NCBI RefSeq assembly: GCF_058153355.1
Contig: NZ_CM177019.1
Direction: 5' to 3' (one strand)
Length of the DNA stretch: 64,000 bases
Positions 1-41,454 of the stretch are shown here, in pieces (position 1 is the first letter of the stretch; the number at the start of each line of letters is the position of its first letter). The position numbers and the translations under genes were made by a program. Under the pieces are notes generated by a model. The model was not told the origin of the DNA and ran no database searches. It saw nothing but the letters and a program-made list of their open reading frames with translations.

Positions 1-424
1 GAATACCGATGGTATAAACGAACAGGATCAGGCCAAATTCCTGAATAACATGCAGCATATCGCTACTTAATGTCATCCCCGCCTGAGAAACAAAATGGCC
101 GACGATGATCCCACCAAACAGCACGCCGCCAATACCTAATCCTATGCCGCGAAATTTGACGTTGCCGATAAACAAACCGACGACTGCCACCAAAGCCAGA
201 ATACTGACCGTTAATGCTATATCACTCATCGTCCATTTCTCTTGAGATAACATTTTAATTGCTACGGATTATGGCTGAATCGGTGAAGCAGATTTGCCTT
301 ATAGCGCACATTATCACGGGAAAGAACGTGCCGAAATATCTTAAACAGGCGAAATTTAACGCTTTGTTGAGTAAGAAAGACAAAAAAAGCCCCACCAGAA
401 TGGTGGGGCAAAGAGAATAGCTAG

Positions 425-853
425 TTAGCTATTTAACGCGGGACGTTCGCTGATAGCGATACGCTGCGCTGCGATGGGTTCAGGCTCATTACGAATTAAA
501 TCAATATGCAGTAAACCGTTTACGAAGGTTGCACCAGAGACTTCCATATTTTCAGCCAGCGTAAAGCTCAGGCTAAATGGCTGATTCATAAGCCCTTGAT
601 GCAGCCATTTTTTCTCTTCTTTTGGCTGCTCCGGCGTGCCTTTTACGCTCAGGCGCGTACCTTCCAGTTGAATATCTAAATCTTCCTGACGAAAACCTGC
701 CAGCGCAAGGGTAATGCGGTAGTGGTTATCGTCGCTTTTCTCAATGTTGTACGGCGGGAAGCTCTGGCTTTCACCGGCGTTTTGCAGTGCGTTGGCCAGT
801 TTGTCAAAACCGATCCATTGACGCATCAGTGGGGATAAATCGAAGTTACGCAT
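425..853 (-). CDS. ibpB: small heat shock protein IbpB
   Basis: Track ORF 425..892; protein from [13 protein letters not shown] to the C-terminus matches IbpB (142 aa). Start trimmed to the ATG at 851-853. Confidence 0.9.
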
Positions 854-964
854 AGTCATTTCTCCTTCTAAGAAGCGAGTAAGTACCTGCAAATCCGAAG
901 ATTCGCATATGCTCCCTGACGGCGAGCATGGAGATATCAGGCCGCGCCAGGCGGCCTTAGGGAA

Positions 965-1378
965 TTAGTTGATTTCGATACGGCGCGGTTTTTTCGCTTC
1001 CGGAATCACACGTTCGAGATCGATATACAGCAAACCATTTACCAGGTTAGCACCACGAACATGAATGTTCTCAGCTAACTGGAATTTGCGTTCAAAGTTG
1101 CGTTCAGCGATGCCCTGGTACAGATAGGTGCGTTCTTTTTGTTCGTCGGCATGAGCACCTTTCACCACCAACAGATTATCCTGGGCGGTAATTTCCAGTT
1201 CGCTCTCAGCAAAACCAGCCACAGCGATAGCAATGCGGTAATGGTTTTCGTCTACCAGTTCAACGTTATACGGAGGGTAGCCGCCATTACTCTGGCTCTG
1301 GTTGTTTTCTAAGTGGTTAAACAAACGGTCAAATCCAATAGCAGAACGGTAAAGCGGGGATAAATCAAAGTTACGCAT
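965..1378 (-). CDS. ibpA: small heat shock protein IbpA
   Basis: 137 aa ORF, alpha-crystallin-type sHSP paralogous to the adjacent ibpB; length matches IbpA. Confidence 0.92.
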
Positions 1379-1480
1379 AATAAATAGCTCCTGAAATCAG
1401 CGAGAATGTAAGACCTTCCACAATGGACAGGTCAGGTAGCCAGAACACCCATCAGGCGCGTCCTCATCGGCTACGATGTA

Positions 1481-1509
1481 AAAATGGGTCTGGAAATGCA
1501 CTTTTCAAG
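1481..1509 (-). promoter_or_regulatory. sigma32 (heat shock) promoter upstream of ibpA
   Basis: Minus strand reads CTTGAAA, 14 nt spacer, CCCATTTT, matching the sigma32 -35/-10 consensus, about 100 nt upstream of the ibpA start. Confidence 0.55.
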
Positions 1510-1683
1510 CCTTATCAGCGGACTTTTTTTTGCAGTTTATGGTCTATTGCATAGACTGAGGGGGCAGCACGAAACGTTAAAGTGCGATAGCCGCCACAGT
1601 GCGACGTAATGATGATGTTATTTTCAGCAAGGGATCGCTATAACTCATCAGGCCAACACCCACGATCAACAGATGAATTTATT

Positions 1684-2016
1684 ATGATAAGAAATGTGTT
1701 GTTAGCGTTCATGATATGCAGCGGAATGACATTACTCGGAGGATGCTCCAGCGTGATGTCCCATACCGGGGGAAAAGAAGGAACGTATCCCGGCACCCGC
1801 GCCAGCGCCACCATGATTGGCGACGATGAAACCAACTGGGGCACTAAGTCGCTGGCGATTCTCGATATGCCGTTTACCGCTGTGATGGACACGCTTTTAC
1901 TGCCGTGGGATGTGTTCCGCAAAGACAGCTCGGTGCGCTCACGCGTTGAAAAAAGCGAAGCCAACGCGCAAGCCACCAATGCGGTTATTCCACCGGCCAG
2001 AATGCCTGATAACTGA
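1684..2016 (+). CDS. yidQ: small lipoprotein YidQ
   Basis: Internal ATG of track ORF 1609..2016 gives a 110 aa protein with a lipobox (LLGGC); position between ibpA and yidR as in K-12. Confidence 0.8.
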   Translation: MIRNVLLAFMICSGMTLLGGCSSVMSHTGGKEGTYPGTRASATMIGDDETNWGTKSLAILDMPFTAVMDTLLLPWDVFRKDSSVRSRVEKSEANAQATNAVIPPARMPDN

Positions 2017-2017
2017 T

Positions 2018-3268
2018 TTAGCGATCAGTTTCGGTGATCCACAGCTGGCCGCCTTCCATCCACGCTAGCCATCGACCATCCGGCGAGAAGACCACGGCGT
2101 CCGCAGAAGGGGGATTGGCGTGGTTTTCGGTTAAATACTCAACCTCGCCGCTTTGCGCATGGGCGCAAGCAATTCGATTATCCAGCACAAAGCCCAACCA
2201 TTCTCCTGACGGATGCCAGTTAAATGCAGACTGAATATCCGTTTTGTTATGGGTTAACTGGCGCGGCTCGCCGCCCTGTGGCGAGATAAGCCACAGTTGC
2301 ACAATGCCGTTATCATCACGCATTAAAAACGCGATTTGCGTACCCTGCGGATTACAGCGCACCCAGTGGCGCGGGACGTTGACTAACCCCGGATAAGCCC
2401 GATGGTGGGTAAAGGTTAAACGTCGCTGCACGACGCCACGCGGTGGCGCGGGCAGGGTTGTTTCCGTTCCACTTAACGGCGCATCACCTGCTGCTTTCCA
2501 GCCAGCTTCATCTTGCGGTAACTCAACGATGAACAGCTCCGGCACTTTCTCGCCCTTTGGCGAAAGTGTGTCGCCAATAAACGCCAGCGCGTGGTTTCCT
2601 ACCCATCCTTCTTCATAAGCACGATTAATTTCATCACTGCCAGGCTGCGGCGTGGGCGTTGTTTTACTTACCAGTACGCACCAGTGGCTACCGCTGTATT
2701 CACGCGGATGCTGCTTTTGTACGTTGACCGGGCCAAACGGTACCGCAACACTGACGTTGCGCAAATCCAGCGCCGGATCGCGTTCATGCATCACATGGTC
2801 GTTATAGGTAAAGCTCACCATTACACCGTTCGGGCTAAAGACATGTACATGGCTGCCGCCACGCAGCGCCCCTGGCGTATACGGCGCGGTAATATCCATT
2901 GCATCAAGGTTGCTCATCTTGCCGTCTTCAACAATCACGCCTCGACGGTGATGGAAATCGTAATGCCATGTTTCATCAGGATTTTCAGGTCCGTGGATAA
3001 AGACATATTTCTCTGACTTCGGATGAACGGTCACCACGCCGACGTGTGCGCCCTGTGACGCACGGTAGATAACCTCGACCTCACCGGTATGAATATTCAC
3101 ACGTTCAATAGTTTCGCCGGTAAACGACGCCCCAGAAGGACGCACGTCAAATACCAGCCACTGGCTGTCGGGCGTCCAGGTATTGGTATTAGTGAGCAGG
3201 TGATTACGGGGAGCAAAGGTTATCTGTTTCATGGCGTGGTCCTGATACAAAACGGTTTCCGCAATCAT
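2018..3268 (-). CDS. yidR: YidR, beta-propeller-like protein of unknown function
   Basis: 416 aa ORF in the conserved position. An internal ATG at 3232 has a better Shine-Dalgarno (AGGA) and may be the true start. Confidence 0.8.
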   Translation of the reverse strand: MIAETVLYQDHAMKQITFAPRNHLLTNTNTWTPDSQWLVFDVRPSGASFTGETIERVNIHTGEVEVIYRASQGAHVGVVTVHPKSEKYVFIHGPENPDETWHYDFHHRRGVIVEDGKMSNLDAMDITAPYTPGALRGGSHVHVFSPNGVMVSFTYNDHVMHERDPALDLRNVSVAVPFGPVNVQKQHPREYSGSHWCVLVSKTTPTPQPGSDEINRAYEEGWVGNHALAFIGDTLSPKGEKVPELFIVELPQDEAGWKAAGDAPLSGTETTLPAPPRGVVQRRLTFTHHRAYPGLVNVPRHWVRCNPQGTQIAFLMRDDNGIVQLWLISPQGGEPRQLTHNKTDIQSAFNWHPSGEWLGFVLDNRIACAHAQSGEVEYLTENHANPPSADAVVFSPDGRWLAWMEGGQLWITETDR

Positions 3269-3332
3269 ACTTCACAAGGACTTCACTTTCAGACAATAGT
3301 CTTTTGCCATCGTGATGAATGTGAGTGAAAAG

Positions 3333-4433
3333 ATGGAACATTTCGACGTGGCGATTATTGGCCTCGGCCCGGCAGGGTCGGCGTTGGCGCGAAAGTTAGC
3401 AGGCAAAATGCAGGTGATCGCGCTGGATAAAAAGCACCAGTGCGGTACTGAAGGTTTCAACAAGCCTTGCGGCGGTCTGCTGGCACCGGACGCTCAGCGA
3501 TCTTTTATTCGCGATGGACTGACGCTTCCTGTCGATGTGATCGCCAATCCGCAGATTTTCAGCGTCAAAACCGTCGACGTCGCCGCATCGCTTACACGTA
3601 ACTACCAGCGAAGCTATATCAATATTAATCGCCATGCTTTCGACTTATGGATGAAATCGCTGATCCCCGCCAGCGTTGAGGTTTACCACGATAGCCTGTG
3701 CCGGAAAATCTGGCGCGAGGATGATAAATGGCATGTCATTTTTCGCGCAGACGGCTGGGAGCAACACATTACCGCCCGCTATCTGGTCGGTGCCGATGGT
3801 GCAAACTCGATGGTGCGGCGACATCTCTACCCGGATCATCAGATTCGTAAATATGTTGCTATCCAGCAGTGGTTCGCAGAGAAACATCCGGTGCCGTTCT
3901 ACTCCTGCATCTTTGATAATGCGATAACTGACTGTTATTCATGGAGTATCAGCAAAGACGGTTATTTTATCTTTGGCGGTGCCTATCCAATGAAAGACGG
4001 CCAGGCGCGCTTCACGGCGCTAAAAGAGAAAATGAGCGCCTTTCAGTTCCAGTTTGGTAAGGCGGTAAAAAGCGAAAAATGCACGGTGCTGTTTCCCTCA
4101 CGCTGGCAGGATTTTGTCTGCGGTAAGGACAACGCCTTTCTGATTGGTGAAGCGGCGGGATTTATCAGCGCCAGCTCGCTGGAGGGGATTAGCTATGCGC
4201 TGGATAGTGCAGAGATTCTGCGTTCGCTGTTACTGAAGCAGCCGGAGAAGAGCAACGCCGCTTACTGGCGCGCCACCCGCAAACTGCGTTTAAAACTCTT
4301 CGGCAAAATAGTAAAAAGCCGATGCCTGACCGCACCGGCTTTAAGAAAATGGATTATGCGCAGTGGTGTGGCGCATATTCCACAGTTTAAAGATTATCCA
4401 ACGCGCTTCACATCGCCCACCAGCAGGATGTAA
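3333..4433 (+). CDS. cbrA: FAD-dependent oxidoreductase CbrA (YidS)
   Basis: N-terminal Rossmann motif [14 protein letters not shown]. Track ORF starts at 3312 (GTG); start is uncertain between 3312, 3315 and 3333. 3' end overlaps convergent dgoT. Confidence 0.8.
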
Positions 4434-5686
4434 GAGAGCGCGCCAATCAACGCGACGGCGGAGATATAAACCAGTGCAGGCGCGAAACCGTAACCCTGCG
4501 CCAGGTACCCCACCACCAGCGGAACGGTGATGCCGCCCAGACCACCGGCGAAGTTAAACACGCCGCCGGTTAAACCAATCAGCCGCATCGGTGCCAGAGA
4601 AGAGACTAACGACCAGGTAATCGAAGCAAAACCGTTGCCGAAGAATGCCAGCGCCATCAGGCACATAATCATCATCGGATCGTTGGTGTAGTTAGCACCC
4701 ATAATGCAGGTGGAGATCAGCAAACCGCAGATAATCGGCGTTTTACGCGCAAAGCCCAGTGAAAAGCCCTTACGTACCAGCAGATCCGCGACCCAGCCAG
4801 AGAGCAGGACGCCGACAAACGCCGCAAGGAAAGGCACCGTGGTCATAAAGCCCGCTTTCAACGCCGTGATGCCTTTTTCCTGGGTTAAATAGTTCGGGAA
4901 CCAGGTTAAGAAGAACCACAGTGTAGAAGCCACCGCAAATTGCCCAAGATAGACGCCGATCAGTTTACGATGGAACACCAGTTTCCAGTCTTTGGCTGTT
5001 AGCGGCTGACGCGACTCTTTTTTCACTGGCGCATCGCCATCCACCAGACCGCCGCCGTCACGAATGTAATCCAGTTCAGCTTTGCTAATGCCTTTGGTCA
5101 GGCGCGGCGGCTGATAAACCTTAAACCAAATCAGCGACCAGATAATGCCGATACCGCCGGTGACAATGAACACCCAGTGCCAGCTCAACATTTCCTGAAT
5201 CCAGATCAGCAGCGGAGTCAGAAACGCCAGACCGACAAACTGACCAGACGTATAAAAACCCACGGCAGAAGCGCGTTCATGTTCCGGGAACCAGCTGGTC
5301 ACCATCCGGTTATTGGTCGGGAACGCGGGCGCTTCGAAAATACCGGTTATCGCACGCAGACCAATTAATGACATTAAGCCCGTGGCAAAGCCCTGGAATA
5401 ACGTCGCCACTGACCAGCCAAATATCGCAATAAAATAAGTCACGCGAGAACCTACGCGATCTAAAAACCAACCGCCGGGGATCTGACATAAGGTATAAAG
5501 CCAGGCGAAGGCCGAAAATACATAGCCCATTTGCGCTTTGGTAATGCCGAACTCTTCCTGAATATGGGCGGAAGCCACGGCCAGGTTAGCGCGGTCAACA
5601 TAACAAATGACCACCGTAATAAAGATCATCACCAGCGTCAGATAACGCCGACGCCCCGGTTTTGCTGCATTAACGGGAATATCCAT
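4394..5686 (-). CDS. dgoT: D-galactonate:H+ symporter DgoT (MFS)
   Basis: 430 aa from [15 protein letters not shown] matches DgoT; track ORF is extended 15 codons upstream. Confidence 0.92.
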
Positions 5687-5805
5687 AGCGAGCTTTCTCC
5701 AGATTTTGGGCATAGCGAAGCCGCTCACCATGCCCTGTAATGTACAGAGGGTTATATTTTTGTATTGCTGTTTTAGTGCCCGATGAGGGGCTTACGTGGC
5801 AGGAA

Positions 5806-5956
5806 TTACCACTCTGCTACGCTGTTATCTTCATGACGCCAGAGCGGATTACGCCAGTCCGGGGCATTTTTACTGAACTCAATGACTTTGGCTTCGTCGA
5901 TTTCTACGCCTAAGCCCGGTTTCGTTAATGGTTTAAAGAAGCCGCCGACCATGCTG
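5806..5956 (-). pseudogene. dgoD: 3' fragment of dgoD (D-galactonate dehydratase), truncated by IS4
   Basis: Last ~49 codons ([27 protein letters not shown]...NSVAEW) match the DgoD C-terminus; reading frame runs directly into the IS4 end at 5957. Confidence 0.7.
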
Positions 5957-7382
5957 TAATGCCAGTCAGTTAAGCAACTGACTGGCTCTTTTTCGGGGCT
6001 GTGGGGTATTTCCAGGGCCTCTCCTTTACCACTCTCGGGAAGGCCCTTTCCCTTCTTGTCGGTAATTTCACAAGTTGTCCCATACTTGCAAGATCGCGCA
6101 TCAGCTCCGGTATACGTCCCGGTGAAGCGCCCTGCAATGTCATCAGCATTCTCATCACCATTCCGCATGATTCTGAGAAACTCAGTTGATTCGGCCAGTA
6201 ACCTTTCAGATGTTCCGCCATTTTAATCATCTGATATCTCACCAGATTATAAGCCAGTAAGACACCCCACAGCTCTTGCTCCACAAGCTCCGGCTTTTTA
6301 CTTCTCAGCGTCAGCCTGCTCAGTTGCATCGTCTGTTTTATCTCCCTGTATCCCAGTTCGATTTCCCAGCGATGACTGTACAGATCCGCCATTTCTCCTC
6401 CGGGGAAGCGCATGGCGTCCGTCATCGACGTCAGCAGATGGCAGACTTTTCCTTTGCGCGTCACGGTCAGCAGGCGGGCTGTCACTTCATTTCCCAGTCC
6501 CGGCCACTTTTTTCGTGCCTGCGGGCTGGTTTTCAGCTTCACCAGATGATCGCCTTTACCCAGTTTTCTGATCTCTTCATATTGCGCTCCCTTTCTGAGA
6601 GGTATCATCCAGTGGCGGTGTTCTCCCGCCAGGCTCCAGGCATTTAACAGTCCCAGTGAGTAATAACCTTTATCCATTAACGTCAGAGTGTTATCGCCGG
6701 TTTGTTCTATAAGTTGCTCAGCAAGCTCATTTTCGCTGTTCTTCATCGTGCCGAAGGCTGCAGCCGTCAGCAGATGGCTGGTCAGTTCCATCTGGCAGAC
6801 CATTTTGACCTGCGGGTAGAGCGCCGGGTTCCCGGCATGTGTCTGGCGGGGGAAGGCTGCATCGTTCTCTGGTGTATCCGGTGTGCGCCAGAACACACCA
6901 TCGATGGCCAGCAGGGTCAGGCCGCACCAGTGCGGATGCGGCGTGGCGTTATGCCAGAGCTGCGCTGTTTTCGTGAACACGCGGCGGACAGCCTCACTTC
7001 CCAGGCGCTGGCGGGCCTGAATAACGGCACTGGGGGCAACGAAGGGGCGATTGCCCGGCAGCATGATGTCCAGGCGATTCACAATCTGGTGAAGAGGTTC
7101 TTTACGCTCAAGCGCCATGCCAACAATACACCAGACCATCATTTCGAGGGGAAGACGGCGCTTGCGTAGCGTTACAGTACCTGATTCGGCAAGGCAACGA
7201 GAGATGAGTTCGGGGTCGAGGTAATCCCCCAGAGAAGTCAGTGGGTTACGCAGAGAATCGTAACGGGATACCAGATCAAGAGCCTGTCCAATGTGCATAA
7301 AAAAATCCGGAAACAAGTGAGCGTTTCCGGATTCTTACACAGCCACTGGATCGGTCAACTGATCCTTAACTGATCGGCATTA
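5957..7382 (-). mobile_element. IS4 insertion sequence, complete (1426 bp)
   Basis: Terminal inverted repeats TAATGCCAGTCAGTTAAG (5957-5974) and reverse complement of TAATGCCGATCAGTTAAG (7365-7382); single transposase ORF inside; length equals canonical IS4. Confidence 0.92.
5970..7298 (-). CDS. insG: IS4 transposase
   Basis: 442 aa from [20 protein letters not shown] matches the IS4 transposase (DDE family); track ORF 5970..7316 has 6 extra N-terminal codons. Confidence 0.88.
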
Positions 7383-7490
7383 GGCCAAATCGGTCCCGTT
7401 TTTTTTCGCCTTTATTTCGGAGAAGTGTCCAGAGGGGCAAGGGGATTCGGGGGAGTATAATTTCGCCATTCAGAAAGAATGGAAAGAATA

Positions 7491-8017
7491 ATGCAAAACA
7501 GAAAATGGATTTTGACCTCGCTGATAATGACTTTTTTCGGCATCCCCATACTGGCGCAATTACCAACTGGCGCACGGTTGGCGGTAACGATCAGGAGATC
7601 CAGACCTGGCAACGCCCGGAAGACTCTGGCAGCCAGACAGTGATGCAATCGCAGGTCATGAAAAATGTCCGCATGATCTCGCCGCAGGAAACCGAAGTGG
7701 CAAGCATGATGGAGGGAATGATTAAAGTTGTTGCCGAATACCGTAATACAAACAACTCAATAGGCTACACCTTCCGCTATTACGCAACACAAATGAACGC
7801 CGATAAAAATATAAAACTGCTAGCTATTAACGGTATTGCACCGACTGCGGAAAATATTCGTAACGGCAAATATCCGTATATCGTCGATGCCTTTATGGTA
7901 ACGCGGGAAAATACTACGTCAGAAACACAAAAACTGGTCGAATGGTTTTTAACGCCGCAGGGGCAGAGTCTGGTGGAAGATGTGGGCTATGTGCCGCTGT
8001 ATCCAACAATGAAATAA
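7491..8017 (+). pseudogene. yzgL: yzgL-like internally deleted PstS-like binding-protein gene
   Basis: ATG at 7491 encodes a signal-peptide-like start (MQNRKWILTSLIMTFFGIPILA) that runs out of frame after ~50 codons. Frame +2 (track ORF 7505..8017) encodes only the C-terminal half of a protein paralogous to the downstream 330 aa lipoprotein. Confidence 0.6.
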
Positions 8018-8042
8018 CGCTCGAGAGAAAGGAATCAGCGCA

Positions 8043-9035
8043 ATGAATAAATTCACCGGTGTTTTACTATTAGGTACGGCGTTACTGGCGGGATGTGTCG
8101 ACCGGGAAGGGTACTATAACAGCGTCAGGGAAGAAGAGAGTCATGGACTGACGTCTCTGCGGGGGCAACCTGAATTACGTTACAGCGATGATTGGTCAAG
8201 ATGGCCGAGAGTGTACGGCGCTACAGCCTTATACCCGCTGTATGCCTCCGCGTATTATGAATTAGTACCCGAGCCAAAAGATAAGGATCGAACCTCGCTG
8301 GCCTGGCAGGCGTATGGTTTGCAACAAACCCGAACAGCTGAAGCCTACGATAGTCTGATCAAGGGTACCGCGACGGTTATTTTTGTTGCACAACCGTCGG
8401 AAGGACAGAAAAAACGTGCAGAAGAAGCAGGCGTTAAACTGAAATATACCGCGTTTGCCCGCGAAGCCTTTGTCTTTATCGTTGATATCAAAAACCCGGT
8501 TAATTCACTTAGCGAACAGCAAGTCAAAGACATTTTTAGCGGTAAAGTGAGTCGCTGGAATAAAGTGGGCGGCGGTGACGAAAGTATAAAAGTCTGGCAG
8601 CGGCCAGAAGATTCTGGAAGCCAAACGGTTATGAAGGGACTGGTTATGCAAGATACTCCAATGCTGCCAGCCAAAAAATCCACTGTTATCGATCTTATGG
8701 GCGGTTTAATTACCGAAGTCGCCGACTACCAAAACACACCATCTTCCATTGGATACACCTTCCACTATTACGTCACACGTATGAATGACAATATGCTCAA
8801 AATGCGCAAACAGATCAAACTGCTGGCTATAAATGGCGTTGCACCTACAGAGGAAAATATCCGTAACGGCACTTATCCGTACATAATTGATGCTTATATG
8901 GTGACGCACGAAAACCCTACGCTGGAAACGCAGAAATTCGTCGACTGGTTTTTAAGCCCGCAGGGACAGCAATTGGTAGAGGATGTGGGGTATGTGCCGA
9001 TTCATGACGCATCATACGAATCATCAGTGCAATAA
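8043..9035 (+). CDS. putative lipoprotein with PstS/phosphate-binding-protein-like domain
   Basis: 330 aa ORF with Shine-Dalgarno AAGGA, lipobox LLAGC, and C-terminal half about 60% identical by eye to the upstream pseudogene. Family assignment is by motif impression only. Confidence 0.7.
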   Translation: MNKFTGVLLLGTALLAGCVDREGYYNSVREEESHGLTSLRGQPELRYSDDWSRWPRVYGATALYPLYASAYYELVPEPKDKDRTSLAWQAYGLQQTRTAEAYDSLIKGTATVIFVAQPSEGQKKRAEEAGVKLKYTAFAREAFVFIVDIKNPVNSLSEQQVKDIFSGKVSRWNKVGGGDESIKVWQRPEDSGSQTVMKGLVMQDTPMLPAKKSTVIDLMGGLITEVADYQNTPSSIGYTFHYYVTRMNDNMLKMRKQIKLLAINGVAPTEENIRNGTYPYIIDAYMVTHENPTLETQKFVDWFLSPQGQQLVEDVGYVPIHDASYESSVQ

Positions 9036-9637
9036 TGATGAATAAAATCAGACTTTATATTCCTCCGTTAATTCTTGGTTTTGTTATTGTGCCGTTGTTG
9101 GTGTGGCCGACGGTGGTTGCGCTGGCTGCTTCTGTTATCACGCTGAGTTTTCTGGGAGAGATACTGTTCTCTATCCCGCTCATGATCAGGCATATTTCGC
9201 TTCTGCAATTACAACTATGGTTATCGGCTGAATATGCGCTTTTCTGCTGTGCAATGGTGGGCGTTGGTTGGCAATTTGCTCGTATAACTCAATCCGAATC
9301 GAAAAGCAGACTGCATTGTTGGCTGGTATTTGCACCAGTTTATTTCTGGTTGCTCCTGTGGAATATCATTTTCTATGTCGCGCCAGCGAATATTGCGTTG
9401 CTGGAGAATATGCGCAGTTTCTTTCTGACAGTTGTCTGGCTCCCACTGAATTTTTCGCCATTTTGGTCTCAACCGTGGATTGACTTTGTCGGTCCAATAA
9501 GCGCACAGCTTGGTTTTGCGTTGGGATATTATTGCCAGTGGCGTAGCAAAAATAGAAGCCAGATACGGAAGTGGAGTGAGTGGGGAACGTGCCTGAGTTT
9601 TGTTACGTTGGGTATGATGGCGTGGGCTTTGCGGTAA
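9035..9637 (+). CDS. polytopic inner-membrane protein of unknown function
   Basis: 200 aa ORF whose start overlaps the upstream stop (TAATG), implying translational coupling; several hydrophobic segments rich in W/F/L. Confidence 0.6.
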   Translation: MMNKIRLYIPPLILGFVIVPLLVWPTVVALAASVITLSFLGEILFSIPLMIRHISLLQLQLWLSAEYALFCCAMVGVGWQFARITQSESKSRLHCWLVFAPVYFWLLLWNIIFYVAPANIALLENMRSFFLTVVWLPLNFSPFWSQPWIDFVGPISAQLGFALGYYCQWRSKNRSQIRKWSEWGTCLSFVTLGMMAWALR

Positions 9638-38766: not shown

Positions 38767-38804
38767 AAAACAGGAGGCGAAGGTGCCTCCCGTTTTATTT
38801 TGTG
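38767..38804 (+). terminator. rho-independent terminator after envZ
   Basis: aaaacaggaggc-gaa-ggtgcctcccgtttt stem-loop followed by a T-rich run. Confidence 0.5.
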
Positions 38805-38927
38805 CACTCAGTATCTACTGAATGAATACGGTTTCAGACATCGGCACCATACGAAGTAAAGTGTACTGTAAGCTGATTGCAGGCTAGCGTATCCTGATTA
38901 GTAAAAGCACACTAAAGGAATAGCTTG

Positions 38928-40211
38928 ATGCAACTTACCAACGAAGAACAAGTACAGATTGCTCGTATAAAAGAAAAAATCCCACGCATTGCCGCACTGG
39001 ATCCTGAATGTAAGTTATTCGGTTCTGAAGGTTGGAAATATCAATGGCCGAAGCCTGCCAGCGAGGCGGAAATAGCTTCCTGGGAGAAAAAACATAGCGT
39101 CACTTTGCCACGGGAATATCGAATTTTTCTTCGCTATATCGCTAATGGCGGTCCGGCACATGCCTACGGTCTTGAATCTTTAGGCGGTACAGATATTTAT
39201 GGCGATATAACAAAAGAAAGCCCTGTACCGCTTTATATGACGCAGCAGGATGTTGATGTGTTGAATGCAGGCCGTACAGAAGATGATGAAGAATATAGTT
39301 TTTTTGACGGCGCATTGACCATTCTCACCCTGGGATGTACTTATGATATTTGCCTGGTGGTGACGGGGCAGTATCGCGGAAGGTTAATGCTGACTGATGG
39401 TGATGAAGATTATCCGTTTGATTTTATATATGATAAAAATTTCCTCAACTGGTATGAACGCTGGCTGGACGATTTTATTGCTGGCATGAGTATGAAGGGT
39501 TTCGATAGAAGTTTGCCAGGAACGCAAATTCAACTGCGTGAGTGGTTTTTAACTGAGAAAATCCCGGATTTACGTAGATCCATTTTATTCTCGCTATGCC
39601 GTTTTCCACAGATAGAACCCGAAACATTTGCCCTTTGGGAACATGTTTGCCGCACAGAGAATGATAAAGAATTGTGTGAAGAGGCATTCATAAGATTACG
39701 CCAAAAAAAAGTTTCTTGTGCTGCAGATATTTTTCGACTCTATTTTACAATGCCAGATGAATTACGTGATATTGCTATTAAAGATCTCCGTTTTGCCTGT
39801 AGAGATAGTGTGGTGAATATTGAGGATTATATTCATTCACTGTTAATAATAATGCCTGAACTTGACGATGACACTCTATCCTCAGCTGTCTTTGCTGTAC
39901 GAGAAACAGAGTATAATAAATATGATACTTTTCTGCCGCTTCTCGAACGTATCACTGATGACCGTCAGCAAACATTATTGTGGGCGATGAGTAAGGCGCC
40001 TGATTTCAATGAAAGCCGAGGATTCGTTGAGTTGGTATTACCGCTTTTTGCATCATCAAAGATGGAGAATGTAAGGAAGGCTATTTTGTTGCTCATTGAA
40101 GTTAAAGATAATCGTATTCCACCATTGGTTGATGAAGCTGCAACTCGTTTCCCTGAACTGACCATTTTACGAGAAAACTACTATCTCAGGACGTGGGGAC
40201 ATAAGCCATAA
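38928..40211 (+). CDS. SMI1/KNR4 (SUKH-1)-like protein with C-terminal helical extension; putative immunity-type protein
   Basis: 427 aa from the ATG at 38928 with Shine-Dalgarno AAGGA. N-terminal motif EIASWEKKHSVTLPREYRIFLRYIANGG matches the LPxxYxxFLxxxNGG hallmark of the SUKH family. Visibly AT-rich; no counterpart at this site in K-12. Confidence 0.65.
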   Translation: MQLTNEEQVQIARIKEKIPRIAALDPECKLFGSEGWKYQWPKPASEAEIASWEKKHSVTLPREYRIFLRYIANGGPAHAYGLESLGGTDIYGDITKESPVPLYMTQQDVDVLNAGRTEDDEEYSFFDGALTILTLGCTYDICLVVTGQYRGRLMLTDGDEDYPFDFIYDKNFLNWYERWLDDFIAGMSMKGFDRSLPGTQIQLREWFLTEKIPDLRRSILFSLCRFPQIEPETFALWEHVCRTENDKELCEEAFIRLRQKKVSCAADIFRLYFTMPDELRDIAIKDLRFACRDSVVNIEDYIHSLLIIMPELDDDTLSSAVFAVRETEYNKYDTFLPLLERITDDRQQTLLWAMSKAPDFNESRGFVELVLPLFASSKMENVRKAILLLIEVKDNRIPPLVDEAATRFPELTILRENYYLRTWGHKP

Positions 40212-40248
40212 ATTAATGGCTCAGAAATGATCTAACGCGGAGAGAAAT

Positions 40249-40779
40249 ATGATCAGGGAACATATTCAGCAAGCGATAAATAATAGGTTAGCATTTGATG
40301 GCCCATTCAATGTTGTTCCTGAACCTGCAAGCACTGCGTTTGATAGCCGGATCCCGACATTGAAAAACGGTGTCTGGCAGAAGGCCAGCCCTATGTTGCA
40401 GGCGCGTTTTGCACATTGTGGACGTTGGTTAAGCGCTACACATGGAAGCTGGCTAAGTATAAGTGACATGGAAACGCTTTGGCAGGAACACATAGAAGAT
40501 ACGTTTCTTGATGAAATCAAAATGAATGCTGTAGCTTCAAGTGATAATTGGGATAACCATGCCTTGGGACTATTTCGTTCTCATCGCCTGTCACTTTTTG
40601 CCGGTAGTGATTACATTTATGAAATGGTTTTTCTCCTTTGGCTAGATAGTACCGTTGAGCCAGAGGTCTGGGTTTATGACTGCAATGGGGAATCACGTTA
40701 TAAAGATCTTAATGATTACCTGAATGCATATATTAATGATGACGTAAGCGCCTGTGAGCGCTCCTGGCGAGTAGAATGA
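40249..40779 (+). CDS. hypothetical protein (island gene 2)
   Basis: 176 aa ORF with Shine-Dalgarno GGAGAG; AT-rich; stop overlaps the next start (ATGA). No family recognised. Confidence 0.55.
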   Translation: MIREHIQQAINNRLAFDGPFNVVPEPASTAFDSRIPTLKNGVWQKASPMLQARFAHCGRWLSATHGSWLSISDMETLWQEHIEDTFLDEIKMNAVASSDNWDNHALGLFRSHRLSLFAGSDYIYEMVFLLWLDSTVEPEVWVYDCNGESRYKDLNDYLNAYINDDVSACERSWRVE

Positions 40780-41402
40780 ATAGCCCCCCTTGCCCCTTTG
40801 ATCCACAAACCGCACATTACCTCGGTACAGTGCAAATCCACTACACCTCAACCACCTTCAACGCTGCCGTTAAGCATTATACCTATCACATTAAAAAGCG
40901 TTTTAAAGGGTTTAAATGGGGAATTGGTACCGCTGGCTTATTGGCTATATTGCCCATGATCCCACAATGGTTGAAACCTTCTCATGACTTTAAACTCAAC
41001 GCAATCAGTACGTTAATTCTTCTATTAATGTTGCCACTCCTCTTATCAATGTTCCTGTTAATCAGCAGAAGAATTAACGATTTTAAGTCAAAAACAAAGC
41101 AAGTTACTTTTACGAAACCCGTGCGTTATGCGTTTTATTTCGAGGGGATTGTTTTTTATGAATCTCATCAGCAGGGCATACTTCGCTGGGAAGATTTTTA
41201 TAGCATTGACTATGAAGAAGATTATTTGTGGCTTTTTCTGCATTTACCGAAGAGTTTTCCCAGAGAAGCGACGAAAGCGTTTTGCGATATTTTCATTCCC
41301 GCCAGCGCGATAAAAGCGCAGCCTGAACTGGATACGTTTTTTCGTGAAACACGCCACTATCTGGATTATCTGTTTGTCCCGTTTAATTCTGACAGAAAAT
41401 AA
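40776..41402 (+). CDS. hypothetical membrane protein, two predicted TM helices (YcxB-like topology)
   Basis: 208 aa; hydrophobic segments WGIGTAGLLAILPMIPQWL and ISTLILLLMLPLLLSMFLLI followed by a ~100 aa soluble domain; translationally coupled to island gene 2. Confidence 0.55.
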   Translation: MNSPPCPFDPQTAHYLGTVQIHYTSTTFNAAVKHYTYHIKKRFKGFKWGIGTAGLLAILPMIPQWLKPSHDFKLNAISTLILLLMLPLLLSMFLLISRRINDFKSKTKQVTFTKPVRYAFYFEGIVFYESHQQGILRWEDFYSIDYEEDYLWLFLHLPKSFPREATKAFCDIFIPASAIKAQPELDTFFRETRHYLDYLFVPFNSDRK

Positions 41403-41435
41403 AAAATCCCCCGTATCTGGTGAAACGGGGGATTT
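41403..41435. terminator. bidirectional terminator between island gene 3 and pck
   Basis: aaaaaatcccccgt-atctggtga-aacgggggattt stem-loop with A/T runs on both sides. Confidence 0.55.
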
Positions 41436-41454
41436 CGTCGCTTAACTTATCGGA

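Follow-up and report, generated by a model that had tools for sequence, protein, structure and literature searches.

A probable orphan immunity gene from a new SUKH-like family, and a separable YcxB-family membrane protein gene, between envZ and pckA of Escherichia coli

In a 64,000-nucleotide stretch of Escherichia chromosome (contig NZ_CM177019.1 of assembly GCF_058153355.1; the whole stretch is called the window here) the gene order is greB-ompR-envZ-island-pckA-yhgE, and the subject of this analysis is the accessory island between envZ and pckA, in particular its second and third genes. All three genes of the island lie on the + strand: gene 1, of the SMI1/KNR4 type, gene 2, and gene 3, which is assigned below to the YcxB family. 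By comparison with the empty-site strain 7FA, the island substitutes for 43 bp of spacer, and homology to that strain and to other variants of the locus ends at 38796-38799, the left edge of the island. The GC content of the island is 0.415-0.427, and that of the flanks about 0.52-0.54. Among 5,426 complete Escherichia coli genomes the whole island is carried by 18, and about 99% of E. coli have nothing inserted at the site. RefSeq names gene 1 an 'SMI1/KNR4 family protein' and, in a 99.4%-identical genome, calls the gene 2 and gene 3 coding sequences 'hypothetical protein'. The features are listed in Table 1, where the Pfam matches of gene 1 bear out an earlier suggestion that genes 2 and 3 lie beside an immunity-like gene.

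Table 1. Features of the envZ-pckA island, numbered from the first nucleotide of the window.
Feature	Position	Strand	Basis or remark
envZ terminator hairpin, bidirectional	38773-38800	.	Terminator scan; left edge of island at 3' end of hairpin
Accessory island, 2,657 bp, between envZ and pckA	38797-41453	+	blastn against empty-site strain 7FA
Gene 1, SMI1/KNR4 (SUKH-1) protein, immunity-type	38928-40211	+	Pfam SMI1_KNR4 E=2.7e-6, SUKH_6 E=3.4e-5 (residues 43-169)
Gene 2, 176 aa	40249-40779	+	Open reading frame; good Shine-Dalgarno sequence of its own (GGAGAG)
ATGA, gene 3 start overlapping gene 2 stop	40776-40779	+	Direct reading of the sequence; ATG 40776-40778, TGA 40777-40779
Gene 3, 208 aa	40776-41402	+	Open reading frame; weak Shine-Dalgarno sequence
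Junction segment TTTGATCCACAAACCGCACATTA, encodes FDPQTAHY	40797-40819	+	blastn against E4742 and Salmonella loci
Strong hairpin, -20.3 kcal/mol, between gene 3 and pckA stop codon	41404-41436	.	RNAfold and sequence

The initial annotation had singled out genes 2 and 3 as an overlapping pair, and both open reading frames (ORFs) and their overlap were reproduced exactly. Four-nucleotide ATGA is the commonest overlap of adjacent same-strand bacterial genes, so that the feature is real but not unusual. The same overlap is present in Escherichia albertii, while the two genes of Escherichia sp. MOD1-EC7003 are separated by 3 nt. It can be seen from the calculated pairing with the anti-Shine-Dalgarno sequence that gene 3 is poorly provided for (-3.0 kcal/mol, versus -6.6 kcal/mol for gene 2), and its Shine-Dalgarno sequence is weak or absent in each variant of the locus where gene 3 abuts or overlaps the preceding ORF, being absent in Salmonella; across the 3-nt gap of MOD1-EC7003 it pairs well (-6.4 kcal/mol). 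In every arrangement gene 3 lacks an upstream intergenic region of its own. The window therefore presents the sequence features of a coupled gene pair, a stop/start overlap together with a poor distal ribosome-binding site. Because the ribosome-binding site of gene 3 is weak, genes 2 and 3 are probably co-expressed, and it is plausible that expression of gene 3 depends on the preceding ORF, whichever ORF that is. The earlier proposal of stoichiometric co-expression stands to the extent that co-expression is plausible; the dedicated pair that it implied does not, as the two genes are found apart.

Gene 2 had been described as encoding a soluble, tryptophan-rich protein with no recognised motif, and this description was upheld. 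The maximum Kyte-Doolittle mean over 19 residues is 1.29, and tryptophan accounts for eight of the 176 residues (4.5%), seven of the eight being invariant or nearly so across the family. Searches of Pfam, NCBIfam, PADLOC and PDB sequences returned nothing significant for gene 2. The predicted structure has the alpha+beta fold of the SUKH (SMI1/KNR4) superfamily, as represented by Bacillus subtilis YobK (PDB 2prv), and the best PDB matches of the model are SUKH-fold proteins, followed by Tde immunity proteins of type VI secretion systems. The SUKH superfamily includes proteins that confer immunity in polymorphic toxin systems (Zhang et al. 2011, PMC3113570). Unlike that superfamily, however, the gene 2 family is not recognised by SUKH sequence profiles, none of 30 family members matching Pfam SMI1_KNR4, SUKH_3-6 or Syd, and its partner toxin tip, described below, is unannotated; hhalign comparison of the gene 2 profile with three SUKH proteins gave E values of 0.28-0.51 and thus no link at the sequence level. 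We conclude that gene 2 represents an unannotated family with a predicted SUKH-like fold.

Homologs of gene 2 with 40-57% identity were found in Enterobacterales, Burkholderiales, Rhodocyclales, Pasteurellaceae, Alphaproteobacteria, Bacteroidales and a metagenome-assembled genome of Deferribacteraceae. This scattered taxonomic range points to horizontal spread of the family. A search of plasmids gave one partial match, in Sphingomonas.

The genes that precede these homologs fall into a recurrent pattern. In Pectobacterium parmentieri, the gene 2 homolog follows a VgrG-DcrB-PAAR/Rhs operon, and the Rhs protein ends with DPFGL and then a 126-aa tip. By tblastn, the tip also directly precedes the gene 2 homolog of P. 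zantedeschiae (94% identity), Lonsdalea iberica (90%) and Serratia rubidaea (79%), and tip and homolog follow one another in the same order in Burkholderia turbans (72%), Azovibrio restrictus (70%) and Aggregatibacter kilianii (56%). In all, the two are adjacent in at least eight genomes of seven genera, other E. coli included. Whereas the tips are 56-94% identical, the Rhs cores of several tip-bearing genomes are merely 25-47% identical, and the tip also occurs after HINT pretoxin domains and on a Salmonella enterica Rhs protein. At three metagenomic loci, degraded fragments of the tip lie upstream of the gene 2 homolog. The family of gene 2 is therefore found directly downstream of one and the same tip on unrelated scaffolds, which is how cognate toxin-immunity modules are usually recognised, and we assign the tip and the gene 2 homologs to such a module on this basis of gene context.

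The tip carries the invariant motif GHxPDVGWGG ... VNxYxGGxTQA, and in an alignment of about 126 aa the invariant residues are K17, W35-N36, R48, G81-H82, D85-V86, W88-G89-G90, V103-N104, Y106, G108-G109 and T111. Annotation searches with the tip gave matches solely through the preceding residues of the Rhs core or HINT domain. To read the GH...N motif as HNH-like would be speculation. The tip lies at 5601-5978 in the extracted locus L002 and at 7445-8668 in the locus of E. coli EC17GD31, whose tip is carried by WP_226096903.1.

The tip is also present within E. coli itself. In 31 of the 5,426 genomes an Rhs fragment with a tip 50% identical to that above is followed by a paralog of gene 2 (49% identical), the two ORFs overlapping by 4 nt, in a vgrG-DUF2169-PAAR island and beside a second Rhs-tip and imm11 module. 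In EC17GD31 (NZ_CP031293.1, 2929363-2947523) the type VI secretion vgrG-DUF2169-PAAR island is followed by stacked orphan Rhs-tip/immunity modules, first this tip with the gene 2 paralog and then an Rhs tip with imm11, and by ISAs1 elements. Orphan Rhs-CT/immunity modules have been described downstream of full-length rhs genes in Salmonella and E. coli (PMC3967940, PMC3150448), and the E. coli paralog of gene 2, placed after a tip-bearing Rhs fragment, resembles them. The window differs in having the immunity gene alone, with no Rhs remnant and far from any type VI secretion locus.

A search of the 64-kb window by tblastn with the tip and with the full Rhs protein found nothing. Because the window encodes no such tip or Rhs protein, gene 2 has the status of an orphan there, an immunity-type gene with no accompanying cognate toxin gene. 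Comparable settings are seen among distant relatives. In Bacteroidales, long arrays of genes that all run in one direction are headed by a tyrosine recombinase, and homologs of gene 2 share these arrays with Imm19, Imm21, Imm32, Imm17, SMI1_KNR4/SUKH_6 and ankyrin genes. This is the layout of rAID arrays, with a recombinase and Imm and SUKH genes. The E. coli island is unlike rAID arrays in that it has three genes, contains and adjoins no recombinase, and sits between two core genes; it is only the distant homologs of gene 2 that have a tyrosine recombinase at the head of a one-directional array. According to a recent preprint on such arrays, SUKH orphan immunity proteins remain protective against the effector even when they have diverged.

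Taken with the predicted fold, these contexts make an orphan immunity gene from a new SUKH-like family the best reading of gene 2. The initial annotation had offered an orphan immunity cassette as one possibility, and for gene 2 this proposal holds, given the homologs directly after an Rhs tip and those in recombinase-led immunity arrays. There are several observations that weigh on the other side. The orphan gene 2 is only 49-57% identical to toxin-linked copies, and neutralisation by the family is deduced from contexts and fold; the tip matches no family of assigned activity, and the absence of a cognate toxin covers 64 kb of the genome. In addition, genes 2 and 3 stand side by side and tightly joined in each of two lineages that have diverged (84%/76% and 67%/65% protein identity), so that there may be some functional link between them.

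Gene 3 had been described as encoding two adjacent hydrophobic helices in a topology reminiscent of YcxB, and both parts of this description proved sound, the second at the level of fold. One segment is strongly hydrophobic (residues 77-97, Kyte-Doolittle mean 2.6) and the other weaker (residues 48-66, 1.25 over 19 and 1.73 over 15 residues); in homologs both peaks reach 1.7-2.6, and the AlphaFold model is helical at both segments. There are five lysine and arginine residues before the first transmembrane (TM) helix, two in the loop and five after the second, a distribution that fits a topology with both termini in the cytoplasm. The model (predicted local distance difference test score 73.5) has an N-terminal strand, a helix, the TM hairpin, six strands and a C-terminal helix, so that the hairpin is inserted between an N-terminal element and a C-terminal PH-like domain. 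The top 50 Foldseek matches in AFDB50 (E 9e-9 to 4e-5, TM-score up to 0.64) are without exception YcxB or YcxB-like proteins, the best non-self match having E=9e-9, and an E. coli entry 98% identical to gene 3 is already named 'YcxB family protein'. In the PDB, the matches of the beta-rich part with low root-mean-square deviation are PH/GRAM-like domains. On the predicted structure, we conclude that gene 3 encodes a YcxB-family inner-membrane protein with two TM helices and a split PH-like domain.

With the YcxB family (PF14317) gene 3 has in common the full-length fold and the layout of strand, helix, TM hairpin and C-terminal beta-domain. It differs from the family at large in belonging to a tiny, diverged subfamily with an insertion of about 15 residues before the final strand, and in falling below the threshold of the Pfam YcxB model (E=1.9, residues 123-155 only); searches of Pfam, NCBIfam and PDB sequences gave no significant match. 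A profile search of 1.84 billion representatives recovered 15 clusters of the subfamily, from Escherichia, Salmonella-like backbones, Superficieibacter, Morganella and Orbaceae, and no relatives were found in the plasmids and phages searched. Our search for functional literature on YcxB proteins found none. PADLOC reported a weak match of residues 54-151 (window 40935-41228) to the Pycsar effector PycTM (E=0.0057, 15 bits), which is probably driven by the TM hairpin. A distant homolog of gene 3 adjoins a YjhX toxin gene, a context that is uninformative.

All close homologs of gene 3 lie at the envZ-pckA site, and it is the genes upstream of them that vary. In E. coli and E. albertii these are an SMI1/KNR4 gene and gene 2, and in MOD1-EC7003 a stand-alone HEAT-like gene (5484-5911 of the locus) and gene 2. 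In Escherichia sp. E4742 and E. coli A30 the HEAT-like domain is fused in frame to gene 3, giving an ORF of 346 aa (8001-9041 of the E4742 locus), and in Salmonella enterica gene 3 is preceded by a HEAT-like ORF, a CdiI_5 gene and a truncated CdiI_5 gene (6348-8618 of the locus). A Salmonella-like backbone has the reverse fusion, with the HEAT-like domain placed after the gene 3 module (365 aa, 8001-9098 of the locus). At one and the same chromosomal site, the helical HEAT-like module, of about 140 aa, is thus found in frame either before or after the gene 3 module. Its family search gave a weak HEAT_2 match alone (E=0.088). The C-terminal half of gene 1 (about 230 aa, residues ~200-427, window 39530-40211) has no family match and no similarity to this module.

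When the window was compared with the other variants by blastn, homology stopped 35 nt past the envZ stop codon and resumed at 40797, 21 nt inside gene 3. Everything upstream of this point, the start codon of gene 3 included, is specific to the cassette in the window. The 23-nt junction segment recurs exactly in Salmonella, at the 3' end of a 152-aa ORF, the upstream fragment left where the CdiI_5 gene and its truncated second copy were inserted and split an ORF of the 346-aa type; the start of the Salmonella gene 3 ortholog, MPFGLKPVMTQ (11 residues), is derived from the interior of CdiI_5. Since homology resumes only within gene 3, and the Salmonella start is derived from CdiI_5, the comparison assigns the start codon and the ATGA overlap to the incoming cassette, and the overlap is best described as a feature of the junction.

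To see how widely the two genes occur together, loci were scanned with a hidden Markov model of the gene 3 family. The scan detected no member at roughly 30 other gene 2 loci, every toxin-linked copy included, and gene 3-like ORFs were confined to the enterobacterial envZ-pckA site, one related contig and Orbaceae. Conversely, gene 3 occurs without gene 2 in S. enterica, E4742, A30 and the Salmonella-like backbone. The two families are therefore not found together wherever either occurs, and from these comparisons we conclude that genes 2 and 3 are evolutionarily separable and do not form an obligate pair. A metagenome scan for the distant subgroup found nothing, and one for the close family found a single locus, which is organised as in E. 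albertii.

Selection on both genes is purifying but relaxed, the ratio of nonsynonymous to synonymous substitution (dN/dS) being 0.08-0.43 for genes 2 and 3 versus 0.02 for envZ. Between E. coli and Salmonella, synonymous divergence (dS) is 0.24 for gene 3 and 0.79 for envZ; this lower value indicates that gene 3 has been exchanged horizontally.

An explanation that accommodates these findings, and that we consider probable, is that immunity-type genes form a short operon in the island, where the gene 2 protein would bind an injected Rhs tip, and gene 3 would be co-expressed while having an independent function. The type VI secretion system of a competitor, possibly another E. coli, a Salmonella, a Serratia or a Pectobacterium, would inject the tip into the cell, where the gene 2 protein would bind and neutralise it in the cytoplasm; we infer this step from the contexts of the family and its fold. 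The gene 3 protein would reside in the inner membrane with both ends and the PH-like domain in the cytoplasm. Its gene would be the constant but exchanged component of the locus, ahead of which various immunity-type genes have been placed. Because gene 3 lacks its own promoter region and has a weak ribosome-binding site, it would be expressed as the last gene of whichever operon precedes it, in the window by termination-reinitiation at the ATGA. The overlap would then reflect the joining of a cassette to gene 3, and not a dedicated two-protein machine.

In Orbaceae bacterium ac157xtp (CP133583.1, locus 1-8660), two gene 3 homologs that share 59% identity flank an array of nine diverged paralogs of a different protein. 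The nine are one-directional, 248-262 aa long and 20-57% identical, and these proteins of about 250 aa have no Pfam, NCBIfam or PDB match. The Orbaceae array, the enterobacterial locus and the fusions to the HEAT-like domain in both orders together suggest that the gene 3 subfamily associates with arrays of diversifying cytoplasmic proteins. A stronger form of this idea, which we hold to be decidedly unlikely, is that the YcxB subfamily is a dedicated end component of orphan-immunity arrays in Proteobacteria, a membrane protein facing the cytoplasm, with three properties: expression always via the variable immunity-type genes upstream (by overlap, close abutment or in-frame fusion to the HEAT-like module in either order), the bracketing of the Orbaceae array, and horizontal travel with the locus. 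Such a component could support cytoplasmic immunity proteins, whether as their scaffold at the membrane or as their co-factor, or could itself give broad immunity to membrane-acting toxins, and if true, either role would be the first function for the widespread YcxB family.

More generally, gene 3 might itself be an immunity-type factor, for example one that protects against membrane-acting toxins, or a generic array end component, that acts independently of gene 2. This possibility is compatible with the explanation preferred here, although we regard it as unlikely. At envZ-pckA gene 3 is always distal to variable immunity-type genes, it evolves fast and is exchanged horizontally as immunity genes are, and its homologs bracket the nine diverged Orbaceae paralogs. 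There is also an analogy to the YdbS/YdbT-type proteins DdE and DdF, which combine two TM helices with a bacterial PH (PHb2) domain and are needed for enterocin DD14 export and self-tolerance (PMC8657885); they too have a TM hairpin, a cytoplasmic PH-like domain and a link to an antagonism locus. However, DdE and DdF belong to another PH subfamily with no detectable sequence relationship to gene 3 and act with a bacteriocin and an ABC exporter in Firmicutes, so that the analogy holds at the level of fold class only. Moreover, no toxin was seen beside gene 3, the Bacteroidales arrays and Rhs loci examined contained no gene 3-like ORF, the Orbaceae paralogs are without assigned function, and the subfamily is tiny, at 15 clusters.

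A further potential explanation is that genes 2 and 3 form one module, in which the YcxB protein tethers or assists the soluble immunity-like protein at the inner membrane and the ATGA serves to match their expression. The overlap and the weak Shine-Dalgarno sequence of gene 3 are as expected for such a module, and the genes are adjacent with tight junctions in E. coli, E. albertii and the diverged MOD1-EC7003 lineage; the fusions of gene 3 in either order to the soluble HEAT-like module suggest that it may generally partner soluble proteins. What makes this explanation improbable is the behaviour of the two genes elsewhere. The toxin-linked copies of gene 2 are among the loci that lack gene 3 and so evidently work without it, gene 3 stands without gene 2 in Salmonella, E4742 and A30, and in the window its very start codon lies within cassette-specific DNA. 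The suggestion in the initial annotation that the pair may be a small module is thus not supported by the distribution of the two genes.

Two other proposals fare worse still. A pair of the type II toxin-antitoxin kind, with gene 2 as antitoxin and gene 3 as membrane-damaging toxin, would accord with the antitoxin-first gene order, the ATGA overlap and the RelE/ParE-NadS pair that occupies the same site in other E. coli and E. albertii, but we think it highly improbable, as homologs of gene 2 pair with the Rhs tip instead and neither gene matches a known toxin-antitoxin family. What largely refutes this candidate is the existence of gene 3 without gene 2 in several species, and even fused to another domain, which would be lethal for a toxin that needs gene 2; the toxin gene of a type II system would not be expected without its antitoxin. 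The suggestion that the pair is a membrane-anchored anti-phage defence or envelope-sensor module, whether with a PycTM-like effector or as an accessory of EnvZ/OmpR, draws on the location beside envZ and on the PycTM match, which is marginal, lies mostly in the TM helices and was all that PADLOC yielded; with no cyclase or other defence partner, no PADLOC match for gene 1 or gene 2, no homolog on phages or plasmids, and a site that is empty in nearly all E. coli and holds unrelated cargo in others, we give this suggestion very little credence.

The findings delineate a new candidate toxin-immunity pair, consisting of a Rhs- or HINT-linked tip of about 126 aa and a SUKH-like immunity protein of about 175 aa, which is spread across Gamma- and Betaproteobacteria, with orphan immunity copies also in Alphaproteobacteria, Bacteroidales and Deferribacteraceae. 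As toxin-bearing (31 of 5,426) and immunity-only (18 of 5,426) genotypes both occur within E. coli, the pair offers a testable case of acquired interbacterial defence in a model organism. For the YcxB family, the locus provides a first repeated genomic association that is worth testing. Current views are not overturned, since orphan immunity genes are expected.

The findings also mark the envZ-pckA spacer as a site of exchange for immunity and toxin-antitoxin cargo. The spacer is a cargo hotspot in E. coli and E. albertii: in some E. coli (for example E9) it is filled by the NadS and RelE/ParE toxin-antitoxin pair, and E. albertii has both this pair and the immunity island. Loci of the E. albertii type additionally contain a duplicated 277-bp fragment of the envZ 3' end and a 73-bp internal fragment of pckA after gene 3 (8753-9101 of the E. 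albertii locus, and 4699-5046 of the metagenome locus that has the E. albertii arrangement). These fragments look like scars of recombination that imported the island beside the toxin-antitoxin pair. We take the spacer to be recombination-prone and the island to be a small series of genes of the immunity type, which seems to move by homologous recombination of its flanks.

With regard to transcription, the + strand from the envZ terminator to gene 1 (38800-38927) contains no match to the sigma-70 consensus, and the island may be transcribed either from a weak promoter of its own or by read-through from envZ. At the other end, the hairpin between gene 3 and the pckA stop codon has its T-run on the minus strand and is therefore the probable terminator of pckA; it probably ends the island operon as well.

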